From NCBI GenBank assembly GCA_965203795.1, contig OZ241915.1:2494255-2558254 (forward strand): 64,000 nt of DNA, given 5' to 3'. A model generated the notes under the pieces. It was not told the origin of the DNA, did not search any database, and was given only the letters and a program-made list of their open reading frames with translations. Positions 1 to 14,213 of the stretch are shown here, one piece after another. The position numbers were made by a program, and so were the translations under genes. How positions within the stretch are numbered: position 1 is the first letter of the stretch; every line of letters starts with the position of its first letter. This stretch comes from Paracoccaceae bacterium (GTDB taxonomy: Bacteria; Pseudomonadota; Alphaproteobacteria; Rhodobacterales; Rhodobacteraceae).

Positions 1-981
1 CTGATCGACAGCCATGTGCATCCCGTCGTCGGCGATTACACGCCTAGGCAGCAGCAGTTGCACTGGATCGATTCGACGCTCCACGGCGGCGTTACAACGC
101 TGATTTCCGCAGGCGAAGTTCACATGCCGGGCAGACCCAAGGACGTGGTCGGCCTGAAGGCGATGTCGATCGCGGCGCAGCGCTGGTACGAGAACTTCAG
201 GCCGTCAGGCGTCAAGGTTCATGCCGGCGCACCGGTCATCGAGCACGGAATGGAGGAGGAGGATTTCAAGGAGCTCGCCGACGCGGGCGTACGTTTCCTC
301 GGCGAGGTCGGCCTCGGCTCCGTGAAGGACGGTCCTACCGCGAAGCGGATGGTGTCCTGGGCCCGCAAGCACGGAATCCAGAGCACGATACATACCGGCG
401 GGCCTTCGATCCCGGGTTCCGGGCTGATCGACAAGGATGTCGTCCTTGAGGCGGACACCGACGTGATCGGACACGTCAACGGGGGACACTCCGCGCTCCC
501 GGACGATCAGATCGTCTGCCTCTGCGAGCAGTGCCGGCGAAGCCTCGAAATCGTCCACAACGGAAACGAGCGCGCCGCCCTGCTGACCCTGAACACCGCG
601 CGCGAGCTGAAACAGCTCGACAGGATCATTCTTGGAACCGATGGCCCGGCGGGATCAGGCGTCCAGCCGCTCGGTATCCTTCGCATGGTGGCCATGCTGT
701 CCAGCCTCGGGAACGTGCCTGCGGAAGAGGCGTTCTGCTTCGCCACGGGCAACACGGCGCGGCAGCGTAAGCTGGACGCGGGCATTCTGGAGTCGGGTTA
801 CGCGGCCGATTTCGTGCTGATGGACCAAGCCCAGCATTCCCCGGGAAAGACGATGCTGGAATCCGTCGGACAGGGCAATCTTCCGGGGGTGGGAATGACC
901 GTCATCGACGGTGTCGTCAGGACGTTCCGCAGCAGGAACACGCCTCCCGCTCAGCGGCTTCCGGAAGTCGAAAGTTCCTGA
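1..981 (+). CDS. Amidohydrolase family protein, enamidase-like (5-prime partial; runs off the window)
   Basis: The frame is open from nt 1 (LIDSHVHP, the HxH metal motif of amidohydrolases). A GxDGP motif and the C-terminal ADFVLMD pattern fit cyclic amidohydrolases. The neighbouring genes are nicotinate-type. Confidence 0.7.
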   Translation: MIDSHVHPVVGDYTPRQQQLHWIDSTLHGGVTTLISAGEVHMPGRPKDVVGLKAMSIAAQRWYENFRPSGVKVHAGAPVIEHGMEEEDFKELADAGVRFLGEVGLGSVKDGPTAKRMVSWARKHGIQSTIHTGGPSIPGSGLIDKDVVLEADTDVIGHVNGGHSALPDDQIVCLCEQCRRSLEIVHNGNERAALLTLNTARELKQLDRIILGTDGPAGSGVQPLGILRMVAMLSSLGNVPAEEAFCFATGNTARQRKLDAGILESGYAADFVLMDQAQHSPGKTMLESVGQGNLPGVGMTVIDGVVRTFRSRNTPPAQRLPEVESS

Positions 982-1422
982 CGGAACTCCGTTACTGCCG
1001 TCGGCAGTAAGGCGGTTCGCGCATCAGCCAGCACGGGCAAGCCGAAGCGCTTACGTAAAAGGGGCTCTACGGGAAACGCTGGCCAAGCGCACACCGCGGA
1101 AATGCAGATCGAGCCCCGGCCACATAGCAGCCCTAAATCCTGCGACGAGGTCGCCGCCAAGCTGGTTGCGTCCGGCTGAAATCCAGTCGAAAAGCACAAG
1201 CGGTGGGTTCTCTCCCGGACAGGAGCAAAATCACTGGGTTTTTCACTATTATTGAAATCGGCACTATTCAGATTAGAGTGCCGAATAATTCTTTACGCAA
1301 ATCTGGCAATTGCCGCCGGGCCTCCGCCTTGCCGCACGTTCGGTGACTGCGCAGAGAGGCTTAGCCATAACAGCAAACAAAATTGAAGCGATTTCCAATT
1401 CCTCGTACCGTTTACCTATTGA

Positions 1423-2577
1423 TCACAATTTGTCATCCCCGCGAAAGGGGCCTTTCCCAACCGCAGCGATCACTCGGTGCTTAATGCCTTCACGGAACTT
1501 GCCAAGTTCGTCCGGTTGCCAAAGCAGGTGGTTGTACTGCCGAGTGTCAAAATGCAGATGCTCCACATGGTCTTCGCGACAGGTCCAGATTACGGGAATG
1601 CCCAGCCCGTGGGCAAAGCCGGCCTCGAAATATACGCCGCCGCGGGGAATTGCCGTCTTATTATCGTCGGCGAAACCGCAGGTGAAGTCAGCGACGATCA
1701 GTCGGGCCTGCCGGATTTCCGCTTCGATCTCGGCATCAATTCGATTGACATGTTCCTTACGGTCGATCCGGACCGCGTTGTATCCTGCACTGCTTAGGCC
1801 TGGTTTGATAGCTTCACTCCAAGCATTCGCCATCCCATCACCGAACCACATCGCCACGAAGGCTCTGTCGCTGTCCGGCGCAGCATGACGGAGCCGGTCA
1901 AGTCGCATCGCGCCTTGACCCGAAAGCAAATACCACGTTCCGTCCTGATAACCAGTTCCAGGATGTCGCTTGAGAAAGCCCTGCTCCAGCGCCGCGTCGG
2001 CCAACCACCAGAGTTCATCATAATCCCGGCACTCCGTCGCAGCCATGCAACGTTCAGTAAATTCGGCGACCTTTTTGCATTGATTCATTGCCCAGCGCGT
2101 CGGTTGTGAAATTGGTCCGCGCTCTTCCACGCAACGTAGAAGTTCATCAATCCGATCCTGAATTCTCAAACGAGGATGGCGCGCCAATTTCTTGAGATCG
2201 TCGAGGTTGGTGATTAAGGGAAATAGTCCGCTGCGGTTCATCTTGAAGATATTCCGCGATGCGGCTATTCGTAATCGTTGGTCAGCATTTTCCTCGATTA
2301 GGGGAAAATCTTCGTAATTCCAAGGACGCCCAAATAAGCCGCCGCCTCTAGGAGAATACCACCATTCTGGTCGTTCCGGTTCGCGGCGAAAAAGCCACGC
2401 ACCCGTTCTAGCCTCGTCGGTCCAGATCGGGCATGCTTTCTGTTCGCCGTTCTTCTTAATCACATCAACCAGATCCGGTAGGTTCAGGTTCGGTGGGAGC
2501 GAAAGCAATTCAACGTTCATCAATCTTGCCTTGGATTTCCTGCGAATTTGGGCCGCGTAAATGTTATGCACGCTCAA
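1423..2577 (-). CDS. Hypothetical protein: unrecognised N-terminal region plus a C-terminal nucleoside 2-deoxyribosyltransferase/TIR-like Rossmann domain
   Basis: 384-aa ORF (TTG at 2577, alternative ATG at codon 20) in a visibly AT-richer patch, with AAGGAGG upstream. The C-terminal motif chain is FVAMWFGD, IDAEIEAEIRQARLIVADFT, GVYFEAGFAHGLGIPVIW, HFD. Confidence 0.6.
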   Translation of the reverse strand: MSVHNIYAAQIRRKSKARLMNVELLSLPPNLNLPDLVDVIKKNGEQKACPIWTDEARTGAWLFRREPERPEWWYSPRGGGLFGRPWNYEDFPLIEENADQRLRIAASRNIFKMNRSGLFPLITNLDDLKKLARHPRLRIQDRIDELLRCVEERGPISQPTRWAMNQCKKVAEFTERCMAATECRDYDELWWLADAALEQGFLKRHPGTGYQDGTWYLLSGQGAMRLDRLRHAAPDSDRAFVAMWFGDGMANAWSEAIKPGLSSAGYNAVRIDRKEHVNRIDAEIEAEIRQARLIVADFTCGFADDNKTAIPRGGVYFEAGFAHGLGIPVIWTCREDHVEHLHFDTRQYNHLLWQPDELGKFREGIKHRVIAAVGKGPFRGDDKL

Positions 2578-2885
2578 TTGTCAATAAGCCTCCTTTCGTG
2601 GCCCATTATTTGCATCCTTTTTTGCTCCTTTTCCAGAAGGGAACTCCTGCGGGCGGTTTCGCGTCGCAGCCCGATGCGGAGGAAGCGAGGCTGAGGGCTT
2701 GATCAGATTTGTGATTTCGACGCGGCGATGGGTAGTAGGCTTCTGGTGTCCGCCTTCCGAACTGGGTTCGCATCTCGAGCACGGCCGGAACCTCCAGCGT
2801 TCTATTTCGATCTCGATGATCTCGCGGCGGTGGCTAAGTGGTCTCTCTAAAGATTCAACGAATTGGACGTTATTTCTTTCGGACC

Positions 2886-3470
2886 CTACCTCAGGCCGTC
2901 TTCGCCCATGGCATCCTCTGCCCTCAAGCCCCCGACGCGCGGAAGCGGGCGGCCGCTATCCGTGACCGCAACCGCGACCATGATCTCCCCGGCCCTAGGC
3001 GCGTCGTTGATTCTGATCTCCATCCCGTCGAAATGCGACCTGACGTACGCGGCGTCCTTGTGCCCGAGCGGAATGTCGAGCGGCGCGCCCGGACCGCCCA
3101 TCTTCTTGGACGAAGGAACCAGAGCCGCCCCCTTTTCGACGGCCTTGCGCAGCGGCGCGCCCAGTTTCGGGTGCAGGATCGCCGCCGCGTGCTCCAGCTC
3201 GCCGCTTTCGCCCACCATCGCCGCCTTGCCGTAGCTTTCGGCCTGCCGCGGCTCGATTCCCAGCGCGGCGACGCATTTTGCGCCCAAGAGGCCGCCTAGC
3301 TCCGCGCCGATCTCCATGAGAGAATCCAGATCTTCAGCGAAGGATCCAGCGAACGGGTTCGCGATTACGGCGACGGCGGCGGCCTTCCGCGTCGGCGGTT
3401 CGATCCGCTGGTCGGCCTCCCTGCGGGTCTCTTCGACAAAGACCGCGATTTTCCGGATGCTCGCGTTCAT
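2886..3470 (-). CDS. Amino acid synthesis family protein (DUF1185)
   Basis: Starts MNASIRKIAVFVEE and contains AVIANPFAG. It is a paralogue of the upstream gene, and its ATG overlaps the upstream stop (ATGA). Confidence 0.75.
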   Translation of the reverse strand: MNASIRKIAVFVEETRREADQRIEPPTRKAAAVAVIANPFAGSFAEDLDSLMEIGAELGGLLGAKCVAALGIEPRQAESYGKAAMVGESGELEHAAAILHPKLGAPLRKAVEKGAALVPSSKKMGGPGAPLDIPLGHKDAAYVRSHFDGMEIRINDAPRAGEIMVAVAVTDSGRPLPRVGGLRAEDAMGEDGLR

Positions 3471-4051: not shown

Positions 4052-4925
4052 GATCCAGCTGCCGGATATCGATTCCCGCTGCCCCCGAAAGGGCGCCGAG
4101 CGTCCGGGATTCGCCTCTCAGGAACAACGCCGCGGAGCTTATCAAACCGATGCCGATCATTCCATTCGCCGCCAAGGCACCGCGATCCAGAGCCAGAGCG
4201 ACCTCGTCCTTCGAAAGCTCGCCGCAGCCGGTCGCCACGTCCATGCCGACCAGGTCCGTTTCCGGATCGATCTCATCCGCCGGTCGGCGGCTTATCGACC
4301 GATGACCCGGAATGTCGACCGCATTAGCAACCATCGTGGCGGCGGCGTCGGCCACAGCCGCGCTGGCGGCGAAGACCGTGGCGGCGTCCGCGATTCCCGC
4401 CGAAAGGCTGCGGCCTCCCATGCCGCTCGTGGCCATTCCGCCGACGCCGATTCCACCTTGGATCACGACCCGGGCCAACTCTTTGCCGCTTGGCGCGCTG
4501 ATCGCCGCCTCGTAGCTCCGTCCTTCGCGCAGGAACATCGAAATGTCTCCGCCGTTGTTGACGTAGGCCCGCGTGATGTCGGCCGCGCGAAGCATCGCCT
4601 CCATTACGGTGTCTGCGACCGCGCCCGCCACGGCCGCCATCGGCGTGATGAATTGGCCCGCCGCGTGCGGTTTGGCGGCCGCCCACATCCGCTGTGCAAC
4701 GGCGCCTTCCGGAGCATGCCCGCCGTCCCGGATCGGCTTCCGCAGCAGATGGAGCTCGGCGACGATTTCCTCAAGCAGCCCGTCGAACCTGGCCGCGGCC
4801 GCGCGGAATGCTTGCTCTCTGCCGCGTGCGGGCTCGGTGTCGGCAAAAATCACGAGATCGATCGGACCGTGATGCAGATGCAGGCGCTTTCCGTCCGGCA
4901 AAAGCGCGGCCGAGAACTCCTTCAA
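4044..4925 (-). CDS. UPF0280 family protein (ApbE-like fold)
   Basis: 293 aa with an N-terminal LHLHHGPIDLVI motif. The TTG start overlaps the upstream stop (TTGA). Confidence 0.65.
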   Translation of the reverse strand: MKEFSAALLPDGKRLHLHHGPIDLVIFADTEPARGREQAFRAAAARFDGLLEEIVAELHLLRKPIRDGGHAPEGAVAQRMWAAAKPHAAGQFITPMAAVAGAVADTVMEAMLRAADITRAYVNNGGDISMFLREGRSYEAAISAPSGKELARVVIQGGIGVGGMATSGMGGRSLSAGIADAATVFAASAAVADAAATMVANAVDIPGHRSISRRPADEIDPETDLVGMDVATGCGELSKDEVALALDRGALAANGMIGIGLISSAALFLRGESRTLGALSGAAGIDIRQLDHA

Positions 4926-6391
4926 GCTTGGCCGTTCCGCCGGTTCCGGCGTCCCGCGCTGGTTTCCACTTTCCTGATTTCCGGCGTCATCACGCTCTCG
5001 ACAGGCCTAATGTGCTCGAGATGGCCGCCGAGCCGCTCGTAGTTTTCCATCGGAAGCGTGAACTCGATCGGCGCGACGAGCGCCGGCGTCGGAACGTAGC
5101 CGAACGCTTCCTCCGGCGTGTCCATGACATCCGCCATGAACGTGATTCCGCCGCCCGGCCAGATGTAGACGGGCGCTCCGCCGCAGGTAACGCGCGTCAG
5201 CGACTCGCGCACCGACATCGTCAGCCGGACCGGATTCTCGGTAACGCCCGCTCTGAGCGACCCGCCGGCGCCGCCCATGAACAGAACCGAGCACATCGCC
5301 GGTTCGCAGTTTTCCGCAACGCGTTCCACCGAGTCCCGCAGCGAGTCCGTGATTTCCGCTTCCCTCGGCGCCAAGTCGCCGTCCAGCTCGTAATAGGCCC
5401 ACTGCTCGCCGGTCGTCGAAACCATCAGCAGCCGGAGGCCCGGCCACGCAACCTTCGGATCAATGCGTTTGATGATCTCGATCGGGTTGTCGATGTTCGT
5501 GCCGCCCCAGCCTGTGCCCGGGTCGGCGACTTGGAAATACCGGCCGGGGGTCGACCGCCGCCCGGCGACCCTGATTCCGGCAGGAGGCAGATCAAGCTGA
5601 CGACCGGCCTCATGCTCTGTCAGAACGCCGGTTATGTGGTCGTCGACCACAACGACCTCGTCCGCGTGCGTTGCCCACTGCTTTGCGAACATGCCTATCG
5701 CCGCCGAGCCGCAGCCGACTCGCATGAGGGTTTCGGAAACGCCGTCGATCACAGGCGACTTGCCGGCCTGGACCACCAGATCCGCGCCTCCGTCGACCGA
5801 CATCTCCACCGCGCCGCGGTTGCAAAGGCGCAGCAAGCTGTCGCAGGTGACCCTGCCCTCCTTCTTCGAACCGCCCGTCAGGTGCTCGACACCGCCGAGC
5901 GACAGCATCTTCGAACCGTACTCGCTCGTCGTGACGTGCCCGATCGGCTCGCCTTCAACCCGCACCGCCTCCCGCTCCTCGCCGATGTGGCGGTCCGTGT
6001 CGATCTTCACCTTCACGCCGCAGTAGCTGAATATCCCTTCCGTCACGACGGTGACCATGTCCGCGCCGTCGACCTCCTGGCTGACGATGAACGGGGCGGG
6101 CTTGTAGTCCGGATAGGTCGTGCCTGCGCCGACCGCCGTCAGGAACGGGCGGCTTCCCTGCAGCACATCGCCGTCCCAGTCGCCGCCCGGATCGTTGAGC
6201 AGGAACGGAACCGCCTTTCCGCCCCTTTCCTCCGAGGACTCGATGACCGTTAGCGGGTCGAGGCGGACAAGCGTGCCGTCGCGGTTGGCATAGCGATCGC
6301 ATGCGCCCGAAAACCCGTCCGCGATGTAGCACATGACCGGGCACGCATCGCAGCGGATCTTGTCCGGCTTGCCGCGGCGGGGATTATCCAC
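4922..6391 (-). CDS. 6-hydroxynicotinate reductase-like protein
   Basis: 489 aa. The N-terminal Cys cluster KIRCDACPVMCYIADGFSGACDRYAN is typical of proteins annotated this way. GTG start overlaps the upstream gene. Confidence 0.65.
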   Translation of the reverse strand: MDNPRRGKPDKIRCDACPVMCYIADGFSGACDRYANRDGTLVRLDPLTVIESSEERGGKAVPFLLNDPGGDWDGDVLQGSRPFLTAVGAGTTYPDYKPAPFIVSQEVDGADMVTVVTEGIFSYCGVKVKIDTDRHIGEEREAVRVEGEPIGHVTTSEYGSKMLSLGGVEHLTGGSKKEGRVTCDSLLRLCNRGAVEMSVDGGADLVVQAGKSPVIDGVSETLMRVGCGSAAIGMFAKQWATHADEVVVVDDHITGVLTEHEAGRQLDLPPAGIRVAGRRSTPGRYFQVADPGTGWGGTNIDNPIEIIKRIDPKVAWPGLRLLMVSTTGEQWAYYELDGDLAPREAEITDSLRDSVERVAENCEPAMCSVLFMGGAGGSLRAGVTENPVRLTMSVRESLTRVTCGGAPVYIWPGGGITFMADVMDTPEEAFGYVPTPALVAPIEFTLPMENYERLGGHLEHIRPVESVMTPEIRKVETSAGRRNRRNGQA

Positions 6392-10545: not shown

Positions 10546-10786
10546 CTCGACCGTGCTAAAACTCTCCCGCTGTCGGCCTGCCGATGCGGAGCCCCTTATC
10601 GCAGCGGAGGCAGGCCGACACCGCGGCCGTACGGCAATCGAAAACCCCGCCGCGCTCTGAATCCGGACCGACCGGTCGGCCGCCGGTCAGCGCGAAACGG
10701 GGCCAGCGATCAAAAACAGCCGCAGCTCCAAGCCGCGGATCAGGTCGAATGCAGCCTAAATTCCGGCACCCGCCGATACGGTTGCT

Positions 10787-13163: not shown

Positions 13164-14198
13164 CTACACTTCGCGCCTGCGCAGAAGCCAAATGAAGAAT
13201 CCGCCGCCCACCAGCCCCGTGACGACGCCGATGGGTATGTCCTCAGGGGACAAGACCGTGCGGGCCGCGGCGTCGGCCCAGACAAGAAACAGGGCGCCTG
13301 CCAATGCGGATCCGGGAAGAACCCGGAAATTGTTCCCGCCGAGCACCATCCGCACCATGTGCGGCACCATCAGGCCCACGAAGCCGATCATCCCGGAATA
13401 GGCGACCATGACTCCGGTAAGAAGCGCCGAAACCGTGAACGCGGCAAGCCGGAAGCCGTGAACGGAAACGCCGAGCGTCGATGCCGTCTCGTCGCCGATC
13501 GTGACGGCGTTCAGATCCTGCGACTTGATCCAGAAGTAGGCGCCGCATCCCGCAAGCGCCAGCGCGGGGTACGGCAGGCGTCCCCACTCCGCGAGCCCCA
13601 GGCCGCCCAGCATCCAGAACACGACGGTGTGCGTCGCGCGCGGATCCCCGAAAAAGATCAGCAGGTTCGCGCACGCCATGAGCACGAACGACACGGCCAC
13701 CCCTACGAGCACGAGGCGTTCCGCGCTGGCATCCCCCGTCGCCCGCGAGGCCGACAGCACGGCAATCGTCGCGAGCAGCGATCCGGCGAACGCCATTGCC
13801 GGCACGGTGGCGCCGCCCAAAAACAGGCCCGTGTGCAGCAGCGCCAGAATTGCGCCCAGAGCGCCGCCGGAGGAGATCCCGAGGAGATGCGGGTCCGCCA
13901 GCGGATTGCGCGTGACCGCCTGAAGCACGGCGCCCACCAGCGCGAGCCCCGCTCCGACCAGGCAGGCGAGCAGCACTCTGGGAAGCCTGATTTCCCATAC
14001 GATCGCGGCGTGGGCACGAGTCCAGTGCGTTTCGACGGAACCGGGCCAAGCCCGGTCAGCAATGACTCCGGCAACGGTTGCGATCGGAACCGGAACGGAG
14101 CCCATGCCTGTCGCAGCGGCGACCGACACGAGCAGCGCAGCTGCGCATCCCAGATAGAGAGCCACCGGCGGCACCCGCGCGGCGGCGGGAGTCCTCAC
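13164..14198 (-). CDS. FecCD-family ABC permease (BtuC-like)
   Basis: 344 aa and polytopic, with the C-terminal EDIPIGVVTGLVGGGFFIWLL motif. It sits in an operon with a substrate-binding protein and an ATPase behind a B12 riboswitch. Confidence 0.85.
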   Translation of the reverse strand: MRTPAAARVPPVALYLGCAAALLVSVAAATGMGSVPVPIATVAGVIADRAWPGSVETHWTRAHAAIVWEIRLPRVLLACLVGAGLALVGAVLQAVTRNPLADPHLLGISSGGALGAILALLHTGLFLGGATVPAMAFAGSLLATIAVLSASRATGDASAERLVLVGVAVSFVLMACANLLIFFGDPRATHTVVFWMLGGLGLAEWGRLPYPALALAGCGAYFWIKSQDLNAVTIGDETASTLGVSVHGFRLAAFTVSALLTGVMVAYSGMIGFVGLMVPHMVRMVLGGNNFRVLPGSALAGALFLVWADAAARTVLSPEDIPIGVVTGLVGGGFFIWLLRRREV

Positions 14199-14213
14199 GT
14201 GGACTTCGTGCTG

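Follow-up and report, generated by a model that had tools for sequence, protein, structure and literature searches.

We analyzed a 64,000-nucleotide stretch of a Paracoccaceae genome (assembly GCA_965203795.1, contig OZ241915.1, positions 2,494,255 to 2,558,254; hereafter the window) that carries, near its 5' end, a small islet of foreign DNA with one gene. We think, with moderate confidence, that this islet is a horizontally acquired, single-gene sensor-effector module against phage, and that its product is an N-glycosidase of the TIR/nucleoside 2-deoxyribosyltransferase (NDT) class that most likely cleaves NAD(P)+ and aborts infection. Confidence is not the same for each part of this proposal. 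Judged from its genomic context and the class of its C-terminal domain, the gene is quite probably a defense gene. The choice of NAD(P)+ as the substrate is made by analogy with characterized relatives and is tentative.

The insertion itself is evident from a comparison with close relatives. Its limits are as follows.

982..2885, no strand: inserted islet, 1,904 bp, delimited by the break in blastn homology with empty-site loci and by its G+C content (GC)

The islet lies between two convergent stop codons, that of an amidohydrolase gene on the left (979-981, plus strand) and that of an AA_synth-family gene on the right (2886-2888, minus strand). Three relatives (L087, L088 and L089) have flanks that are 93-96% identical to those of the window by blastn, with homology ending at ~970-982 on the left and at ~2882-2883 on the right. 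Because these close relatives keep only 45 bp between the two stops, compared with 1,904 bp in the window, we conclude that the islet is a true insertion of foreign DNA that replaced a 45-bp intergenic spacer. The spacer of the relatives is not present within the insert. Orthologs of the adjacent AA_synth-family gene (window 2886-3470) that are 98% and 95% identical occur on long contigs that keep the same cluster (a molybdopterin hydroxylase, a 489-amino-acid (aa) protein, AbpE/UPF0280, two AA_synth genes and the convergent amidohydrolase), and the nearest named relative of this flanking gene is in Kaustia mangrovi (Hyphomicrobiales, Parvibaculaceae). Filled and empty alleles are found together in a single metagenome, as an empty-site contig at ~14x coverage and a contig identical to the window at ~2.5x. 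The islet gene is thus a presence/absence polymorphism between close genomes of one sample.

The islet also stands out in composition. Its GC is 0.542, against 0.662 +/- 0.023 in the other 1.9-kb segments of the 64-kb stretch (z = -5.2), and is the lowest among them. In 300-bp steps GC is 0.62-0.66 before the islet, 0.50-0.57 across ~1200-2850 and 0.64-0.68 beyond, and GC at third codon positions is 0.57 in the islet gene versus 0.80 and 0.83 in the two flanking genes. The original prediction, made from the sequence alone, had described a low-GC islet of foreign origin and single-gene organization wedged between convergent gene ends, and the empty sites and composition bear this out. There is only one long open reading frame (ORF) in the islet and no second credible gene, nor is there an integrase, transposase or recombinase. 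At the borders no target-site duplication is visible, and a search for mobility signatures (direct repeats, target-site duplication, spacer reuse) found none that was convincing. No Rfam family, retron-type noncoding RNAs included, matches positions 900-3000. The noncoding flanks of the islet match no other locus that bears a homolog; the coding sequence alone is held in common.

The gene is read from the minus strand. Residue numbers below follow a 365-aa product; a 384-aa form, discussed later, adds 19 to each.

1423..2520, minus strand: coding sequence, 365 aa, with zinc-ribbon-like, helical, winged-helix and TIR/NDT-like parts; start ATG 2520, stop codon 1423-1425
1453..1872, minus strand: Rossmannoid domain of the TIR/NDT class, aa 217-356, predicted N-glycosidase effector, by profile and fold similarity
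1624..1626, minus strand: GAG codon of an invariant glutamate, E299 in the 365-aa form and E318 in the 384-aa form, in RGGVYFEAGFAHG (YFEAGF), predicted catalytic residue

Sequence profiles and a modeled fold place the C-terminal domain in the TIR-DrHyd(NDT)-SLOG Rossmannoid clade, at the border between TIR and NDT and below the threshold of either family. The sole Pfam family that matches the window protein is PF05014 (NDT), at 17.3-17.4 bits and E = 0.005 over aa 254-318 only, which does not reach the gathering threshold (28.8). PF05014 is also the commonest Pfam match in the family, again sub-threshold (48 of 52 homologs at E <= 0.1, best 5e-6). The TIR profiles CAP12-PCTIR_TIR (PF10137) and TIR_2 (PF13676) match five homologs (best E 0.012) and two homologs (best E 0.06), respectively, and give no match, and hence none that is significant, with the window protein. 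A PADLOC model for a CBASS "TIR effector" (PDLC00733) matches the window protein at E = 8e-6 and all 52 homologs (best 3.6e-11), in each case through the C-terminal domain only. The same domain matches phrog_16139, of function not known, at E = 2e-35, and a search of the protein against NCBIfam gave no match.

The structural comparisons point the same way. An AlphaFold2 model of the full protein, built on the 52 homologs, has a mean pLDDT of 86.8, and Foldseek finds in it a TIR-like flavodoxin/Rossmannoid fold. Matches in the PDB are a mixture of TIR and NDT-family structures at weak E-values (1.5e-3 to 3e-2). On the TIR side are the TIR domains of SfSTING (7un8, the top match), SPARTA (8spo) and SARM1 (probability 1.0, E 1.5e-3 to 2e-2, target-normalized TM up to 0.6); on the N-glycosidase side are trypanosomal and cyanobacterial NDT, DNPH1 and BcmB, and the NDT-family enzymes score equally. 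Among viral models a "CMP/hydroxymethyl-CMP hydrolase" comes first, then Cap12/Pycsar TIR and NDT proteins. Both kinds of domain, TIR and NDT (DrHyd), fall within one TIR-DrHyd-SLOG framework (PMC9503650).

The motif chain FVAMWFG, LIVADFT, GVYFEAGFAHGLGIPVIW and HFD, from which the original prediction had proposed an NDT/TIR-like domain, is present, with its key residues invariant or nearly so in the 52 homologs, and the profile and fold matches agree with that proposal. Glu299 is invariant in 52 of 52 and in 12 of 12 aligned homologs and lies inside the stretch matched by the NDT profile (profile positions 45-101). From general knowledge of the two families, we take it to be the counterpart of the NDT nucleophile and the TIR catalytic glutamate. 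About 20 further residues are invariant, most of them polar (R251, D253, D262, D278, R293, H323, R327 and Q328), and D325 is nearly so.

Given this likeness, the protein could be a housekeeping or salvage nucleoside 2-deoxyribosyltransferase, or a nucleotide hydrolase, with an incidental N-terminal extension. PF05014 is the most frequent Pfam match, and automatic annotation by JGI and PGAP calls some members and distant relatives "nucleoside 2-deoxyribosyltransferase". The metabolic N-glycosidases NDT, DNPH1 and BcmB-MilB share with the islet protein the Rossmannoid fold, a beta-strand-then-aromatic start (FVAMWF) and a Glu motif of the form ...GVYFEAGFA.G.... However, they lack its sensor-like N-terminus of 215 aa, its mobile single-gene distribution and its defense-island context. 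The PF05014 match falls below its cutoff, the gene is absent from close relatives, its distribution is patchy across phyla and extends to plasmids and viral contigs, and the 80 loci described below show no syntenic metabolic context. The conserved N-terminus, of a nucleic-acid-binding type, is foreign to salvage NDTs. We therefore consider a salvage role very improbable.

In the N-terminal half, a degenerate zinc ribbon appears to be followed by a helical region and then by a winged helix of the PadR/MarR kind, and the whole is probably a DNA-binding sensor or regulatory module.

2323..2448, minus strand: degenerate zinc-ribbon subdomain, aa ~25-66, with C30-P-I-W33 and S56-P-R-G-G-G61 in place of two CxxC knuckles
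1882..2169, minus strand: winged helix-turn-helix and C-terminal helix, aa ~118-213, with an LTxxGxxRL motif (here LSGQGAMRL)

Modeled alone, the N-terminal 216 aa form one compact unit (pLDDT 90, pTM 0.88). The motifs CPIW and SPRGGG align with CPIC/CPVC and CPNCG/CENCG of distant relatives: a Bacillus mycoides plasmid copy and a viral contig (L103) carry CPVC...CENCG and CPIC...CPNCGRYEISGTA, which align with CPIW...SPRAGGxYxITGSA of the core family. C30, W33, S56, R58 and G60/G61 are conserved in at least 90% of sequences; in the window protein the SPRAGG of the family reads SPRGGG. Four short strands in the model (aa 26-28, 41-44, 52-56 and 61-65) fit two zinc-knuckle hairpins. Because the CxxC-bearing relatives align and the modeled strands fit zinc knuckles, we read aa ~25-66 as a predicted zinc ribbon of whose four cysteines the core family has kept only one. 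No solved structure matched the first ~110 aa. The matches that came out of PDB sequence searches were rejected as noise; they were a birnavirus VP4 protease (E ~1) and archaeal/eukaryotic ribosomal protein S19e (E = 0.02). The latter is a weak similarity with a PVW...WWY pattern that overlaps the zinc-ribbon-like subdomain (aa 26-75 of the 384-aa form, nt ~2353-2502), and it is probably due to chance or to a generic winged-helix-like resemblance.

The original prediction had found nothing recognizable in the N-terminal ~230 aa apart from a winged-helix-like tail. The first of these statements no longer fully holds, and the guess about the tail is right at the level of fold. Foldseek matches of the module are exclusively winged helices (PadR, MarR and WRN/BLM RQC), over ~95 residues with probability 0.96-0.99 and E >= 0.06. 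The predicted order of helix, strand, two helices and two strands at aa 120-199, and then a helix at aa 201-213 with the LTxxGxxRL motif, fits a winged helix, and some members weakly match winged-helix models of Pfam (wHTH-PRTase_assc, HemN_C) or PADLOC (retron WH_III-A).

Mean pairwise identity is 67% in the C-terminal domain and 29-30% in the N-terminal parts. A conserved C-terminal domain joined to a fast-diverging N-terminal one fits an effector paired with a sensor. The N-terminal motif set is common to every homolog inspected, low-coverage ones included; matches covering 50-70% of the query were considered as possible domain swaps, and this was rejected since the same N-terminal motifs are present, which indicates divergence and not modularity. 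A search with the N-terminus alone against 1.84 billion representatives found 16 proteins, mostly of 300-370 aa or shorter probable fragments, with one weak local match in a 1,048-aa protein. In none of these 16 is the sensor module clearly fused to a different effector.

The genomic context of the homologs supports a role in defense. We clustered all ORFs within 10 kb of the gene in 80 loci from GTDB. The recurrent neighbors include the Type I restriction-modification (R-M) subunits HsdR (8 loci), HsdM (7) and HsdS (7), Type ISP enzymes (6), resolvases (6) and MNT/HEPN pairs (5). No partner is conserved across the 80 loci, and the commonest neighbor cluster is a generic ABC ATPase (15 loci). 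In ~7-8 of the 80 the gene sits between hsdS and hsdR inside a Type I R-M operon, beside an MNT/HEPN pair (L025, 3910-15944; also L031, L047 and others). The closest homolog (P0002, 64% identical) has an unrelated location near McrBC and IS21, and one member adjoins a resolvase and a 635-aa Cap12/Pycsar-TIR protein. Two independent insertions are in loci of the MADS type, with SNF2/NOV_C, DUF1156, DUF499 and multiple AAA_15/21 ATPases; the MADS system has been described (10.1101/2023.03.30.534895).

Among 134 ORFs immediately next to family members, the PADLOC families found most often are mad2 (9), Type I methyltransferase (5), Type II methyltransferase (5), Type I S (4), Type IIG (4), Type III methyltransferase (3), DRT (3) and GajB (3). 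Among 134 distal ORFs of the same loci, 6.5-10 kb away, no PADLOC family exceeds 2. This is consistent with a defense-island gene whose signal is strongest immediately beside it. On this crude measure and in individual loci, R-M, MADS, McrBC, SEFIR, toxin-antitoxin and recombinase genes recur beside the homologs. The context supports the candidacy, put forward in the original prediction, of the gene as a defense or abortive-infection gene; the defense function itself is inferred.

Several of these loci are of interest in their own right. In L003, in L004/L007 (10001-11071) and in the 9 of 134 immediate-neighbor ORFs noted above, the family lies directly upstream of the MADS methyltransferase gene mad2 (DUF1156), amid embedded AAA_15/21 modules. 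MADS loci may be landing pads for accessory defense genes, or the family may cooperate with MADS. The window protein matches none of the mad models (mad1-8) and there are no MADS genes around the window gene. Because the gene adjoins mad2 so often yet matches no mad model, the evidence suggests embedded cargo rather than a core component.

In the same metagenome as the empty and filled alleles (ERZ25070167), a 44%-identical paralog (P0003; L005, 10001-11962) is directly upstream of a NADAR gene and beside a PIN/Phd pair, with an AAA_15 gene and a methyltransferase gene nearby. NADAR enzymes process ADP-ribose adducts, and this neighbor may bear on the substrate question. On plasmid p4 of Leptospira interrogans, which encodes phage baseplate proteins, a distant member that lacks CPIW and CxxC is located between a SEFIR protein and a 772-aa S-adenosylmethionine-dependent methyltransferase (L091, 6459-11271). 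These three genes may form a defense cassette.

The N-terminal folds and the neighbors raise a second possibility, that the protein is directed at DNA. The N-terminal module would attach to phage DNA, perhaps to a modified form that evades restriction, and the NDT-like domain would excise bases or ADP-ribosylate DNA, resulting in direct, non-abortive restriction. The folds of the N-terminal parts are classic ones for nucleic-acid binding, 2'-deoxyribosyl N-glycosidic bonds are the target of NDT, the best Pfam relative, and the top viral structural match carries the annotation CMP/hydroxymethyl-CMP hydrolase. Methylation-based systems (Type I, II and III R-M; MADS) often surround the gene, and for the retron-Eco1 effector the possibility of DNA ADP-ribosylation has been raised (PMC12673091). 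However, the loss of three of the four zinc ligands in the core family speaks against a canonical zinc-ribbon DNA clamp as a strict requirement, winged helices are matched weakly (E no lower than 0.06), and the characterized relatives act on free nucleotides or NAD+. No NDT/TIR-class domain is known to be a DNA glycosylase. We regard a DNA-directed enzyme as unlikely. A related and somewhat more doubtful idea is a nucleic-acid-guided N-glycosidase, in which the module would recognize a feature of phage DNA such as a base modification or a replication intermediate, and the NDT-like domain, in place of cofactor depletion, would excise bases from the DNA itself or ADP-ribosylate it. If true, this would be the first DNA-targeting member of the TIR/NDT clade, and it could back up Type I R-M and MADS, the systems that often house the family.

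The family is large and widespread. It has more than 4,800 detectable members, nearly all unnamed or "hypothetical", with a few labeled automatically as NDT or Cap12/Pycsar TIR. The gene is therefore no oddity, which amends the picture drawn in the original prediction. GTDB species representatives with the family belong to Binatia, Acidobacteriota, Latescibacterota, Chloroflexota, Alpha- and Gammaproteobacteria, Bdellovibrionota, Verrucomicrobiota, Rhodothermales, Nitrospinota and others. Twenty-two plasmids carry members too, among them conjugative Bradyrhizobium plasmids and a Leptospira phage-plasmid, as do 13 IMG/VR contigs. Despite these 13 loci and the strong PHROG match, a tblastn search of 50,697 annotated phage genomes found nothing. 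One Dehalococcoidia genome (L052) has two family paralogs within 3.5 kb (~10601-10717 and ~14087-14203). No description of the family was found in the literature searched, and PADLOC 2.0 has no dedicated model.

Known defense systems resemble the islet protein in different respects. The closest in parts are the type II retron effectors (retron-Eco1/Ec86 and Sen2 RcaT-type), which combine an NDT-like domain with a winged-helix DNA-binding domain (PMC7736814). The same two building blocks are in one protein, and a few family members weakly match retron-associated winged-helix models. In contrast to the islet family, the retron proteins begin with the NDT domain and end with the winged helix, and the islet family has the additional zinc-ribbon-like subdomain. 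There is no reverse transcriptase gene in the islet or its flanks, no Rfam match between 900 and 3000, and no recurrent reverse transcriptase cluster in the 80 loci; retron effector structures were not among the top 50 Foldseek matches.

The closest in logic is Swarozyc (DUF4062), a single protein with a TIR/NDT-like domain, a catalytic Glu and an auxiliary sensor that is spread horizontally and patchily and is found in defense islands (10.64898/2026.05.01.722283). Its TIR-like domain is N-terminal and its auxiliary domain differs from that of the islet protein, and no Pfam match to DUF4062 at E <= 0.1 was obtained with the window protein or the 52 homologs. The TIR effectors of CBASS and Pycsar (Cap12 TIR-STING, PycTIR) provide both the best match to a defense profile (PDLC00733) and the top structural match in the PDB (SfSTING TIR), and one family member is named "Cap12/Pycsar effector TIR domain-containing protein" in UniRef. 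However, the islet protein has no STING- or SAVED-type cyclic-nucleotide sensor, and no CD-NTase or cyclase is in the window flanks (amidohydrolase, AA_synth) or recurrent among the 80 loci. Nor is there a sign of Thoeris, in that no neighbor is conserved in the 80 loci and ThsA is not among the top PADLOC neighbor families.

The PrrC/RloC guardians are alike in position only. PrrC, an anticodon nuclease, holds the same place in a Type I R-M operon (EcoprrI) as the family does in the hsdM-hsdS-[gene]-hsdR operons of ~7-8 of the 80 loci. The fold and chemistry are unrelated and there is no R-M system near the window gene. By analogy, the R-M-embedded position hints at a guardian role for R-M.

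A third alternative is a ligand-sensing transcription factor or signaling protein. Here the winged helix would sit on an operator, a nucleotide would be the ligand of the TIR/NDT-like domain or this domain would produce a ThsB-like signal, and the protein would be regulatory or act with a partner encoded elsewhere. PadR and MarR repressors have a similar winged helix, the AA_synth operon upstream and the islet are in tandem, and the TIR-DrHyd-SLOG clade includes non-catalytic sensors and signal generators (PMC9503650). However, no neighbor or operon to regulate or signal to is conserved across the 80 loci, no ThsA-, CD-NTase- or cyclase-type partner recurs, and close relatives have the same operon without the inserted gene. 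The invariance of the catalytic-type Glu and of many polar residues also speaks for an enzyme. A regulatory role thus seems improbable.

Based on these comparisons, we return to the single-protein abortive-infection module as the preferred reading. We postulate that the enzyme domain would be held inactive before infection, and that the zinc-ribbon-like and winged-helix module would recognize an infection cue, for which a nucleic-acid structure or a protein of the phage is the most plausible candidate. Recognition would release or assemble the C-terminal domain, which would use Glu299 to break the N-glycosidic bond in a nucleotide cofactor; NAD(P)+ is the likeliest one. Depletion of the cofactor would then stop the infected cell and abort the infection. 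The proposal of NADase activity is made because the characterized defense relatives of this effector class are NADases. The NDT-like N-glycosidase of retron-Eco1 hydrolyzes NAD(P)+ in phage defense (PMC12673091), and Swarozyc hydrolyzes NAD+ and is activated by a phage portal protein (10.64898/2026.05.01.722283). Whereas the insertion, the architecture, the conservation and the association with defense and mobile genes are shown here, we infer the activity, substrate, trigger and phenotype in this scheme.

Several observations weigh against this proposal. Every match to a TIR or NDT family is weak or falls short of its threshold (17 bits in Pfam vs 28.8, Foldseek E ~1e-3), so that these matches do not by themselves assign a substrate, and sequence searches of the PDB, whether with the full protein, with its C-terminal domain or with a profile of the family, found nothing detectably similar. 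In the literature searched there is no phenotype, toxicity or enzyme assay for any family member. The neighborhood enrichment is crude, with a home-made ORF caller, the top 25 families and no genome-wide background, and although immediate neighbors touch 417 PADLOC families, distal ORFs still touch 256. In the window itself the neighbors of the islet gene are metabolic genes and not defense genes. Finally, the choice of start codon is uncertain, and a promoter and terminator scan found nothing on the minus strand, the strand of the gene.

The last two points would also fit a passenger gene that arrived by recombination and is now decaying or without function, as would the SPRGGG of the window protein in place of SPRAGG and the low coverage of the filled allele relative to the empty one (2.5x vs 14x in the same sample). 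However, the ORF is intact and full length with all family-invariant residues present, an identical protein occurs in two assemblies, and a full-length ortholog with 64% identity exists elsewhere. We give the idea of a passenger gene very little credence.

The start codon and the sequences around it deserve comment, as do some smaller features.

2521..2577, minus strand: possible 19-codon N-terminal extension from TTG 2577, not conserved in P0002 or other homologs
2589..2595, minus strand: AAGGAGG Shine-Dalgarno-like motif, read from the sequence, 11 nt upstream of TTG 2577 and 69 nt upstream of ATG 2520
2574..2615, minus strand: 13-codon upstream ORF, MQIMGHERRLIDN*, from translation, whose TGA overlaps TTG 2577
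984..1018, plus strand: inverted repeat with 17-nt arms, 82% complementary, and a 1-nt loop, from a repeat search, directly after the amidohydrolase stop at the left insert edge

The original prediction had given one ORF of 384 aa with a strong AAGGAGG. The single ORF stands (1423..2577, minus strand, 384 aa when started at TTG 2577), and its length is probably 365 aa. The public gene call for an identical protein (P0001) is 365 aa from ATG 2520, P0002 starts at the equivalent position (MKIELLSL versus MNVELLSL), and other aligned homologs do likewise. Because public gene calls and the closest homolog start there, ATG 2520 is probably the start, and 2521..2577 is probably a 5' leader and not a coding extension. 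The AAGGAGG is present and may not serve the true start. The 13-codon upstream ORF has its own AAGGAG nine nt upstream (2625-2630), and could be a leader peptide, a translational-coupling element or a product of chance. The inverted repeat is a possible terminator hairpin, one not called by the terminator scan.

Two observations concern the surroundings of the islet. On the far side of the amidohydrolase gene, just past the 5' end of the window, a region varies among near-identical genomes (L087, 8158-9941; L088, 8200-8556; L001, 12929-13186), with a Phd antitoxin in one, a PIN toxin in another and a 130-aa unknown protein plus Phd in the third. This looks like a second small hotspot that adjoins the islet. 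In the flanking cluster, the 489-aa protein (window 4922-6391, minus strand) has no Pfam domain on record and is syntenic in all relatives examined.

The principle of a sensor and a TIR/NDT-like effector in one protein is already known. What is new is a large family without a name, with thousands of members in at least a dozen phyla as well as on plasmids and viral contigs, and with no Pfam match above threshold. Its sensor module, apparently a zinc ribbon without its zinc ligands fused to a winged helix, has not been described previously. The protein is like a type II retron effector without a retron, and its study may throw light on the control and triggering of such effectors. Near-identical genomes with and without the insert provide a natural isogenic comparison for the effects of the gene on fitness. 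If our proposal is correct, a widespread single-gene family would join the abortive-infection systems that target NAD+ or nucleotides.

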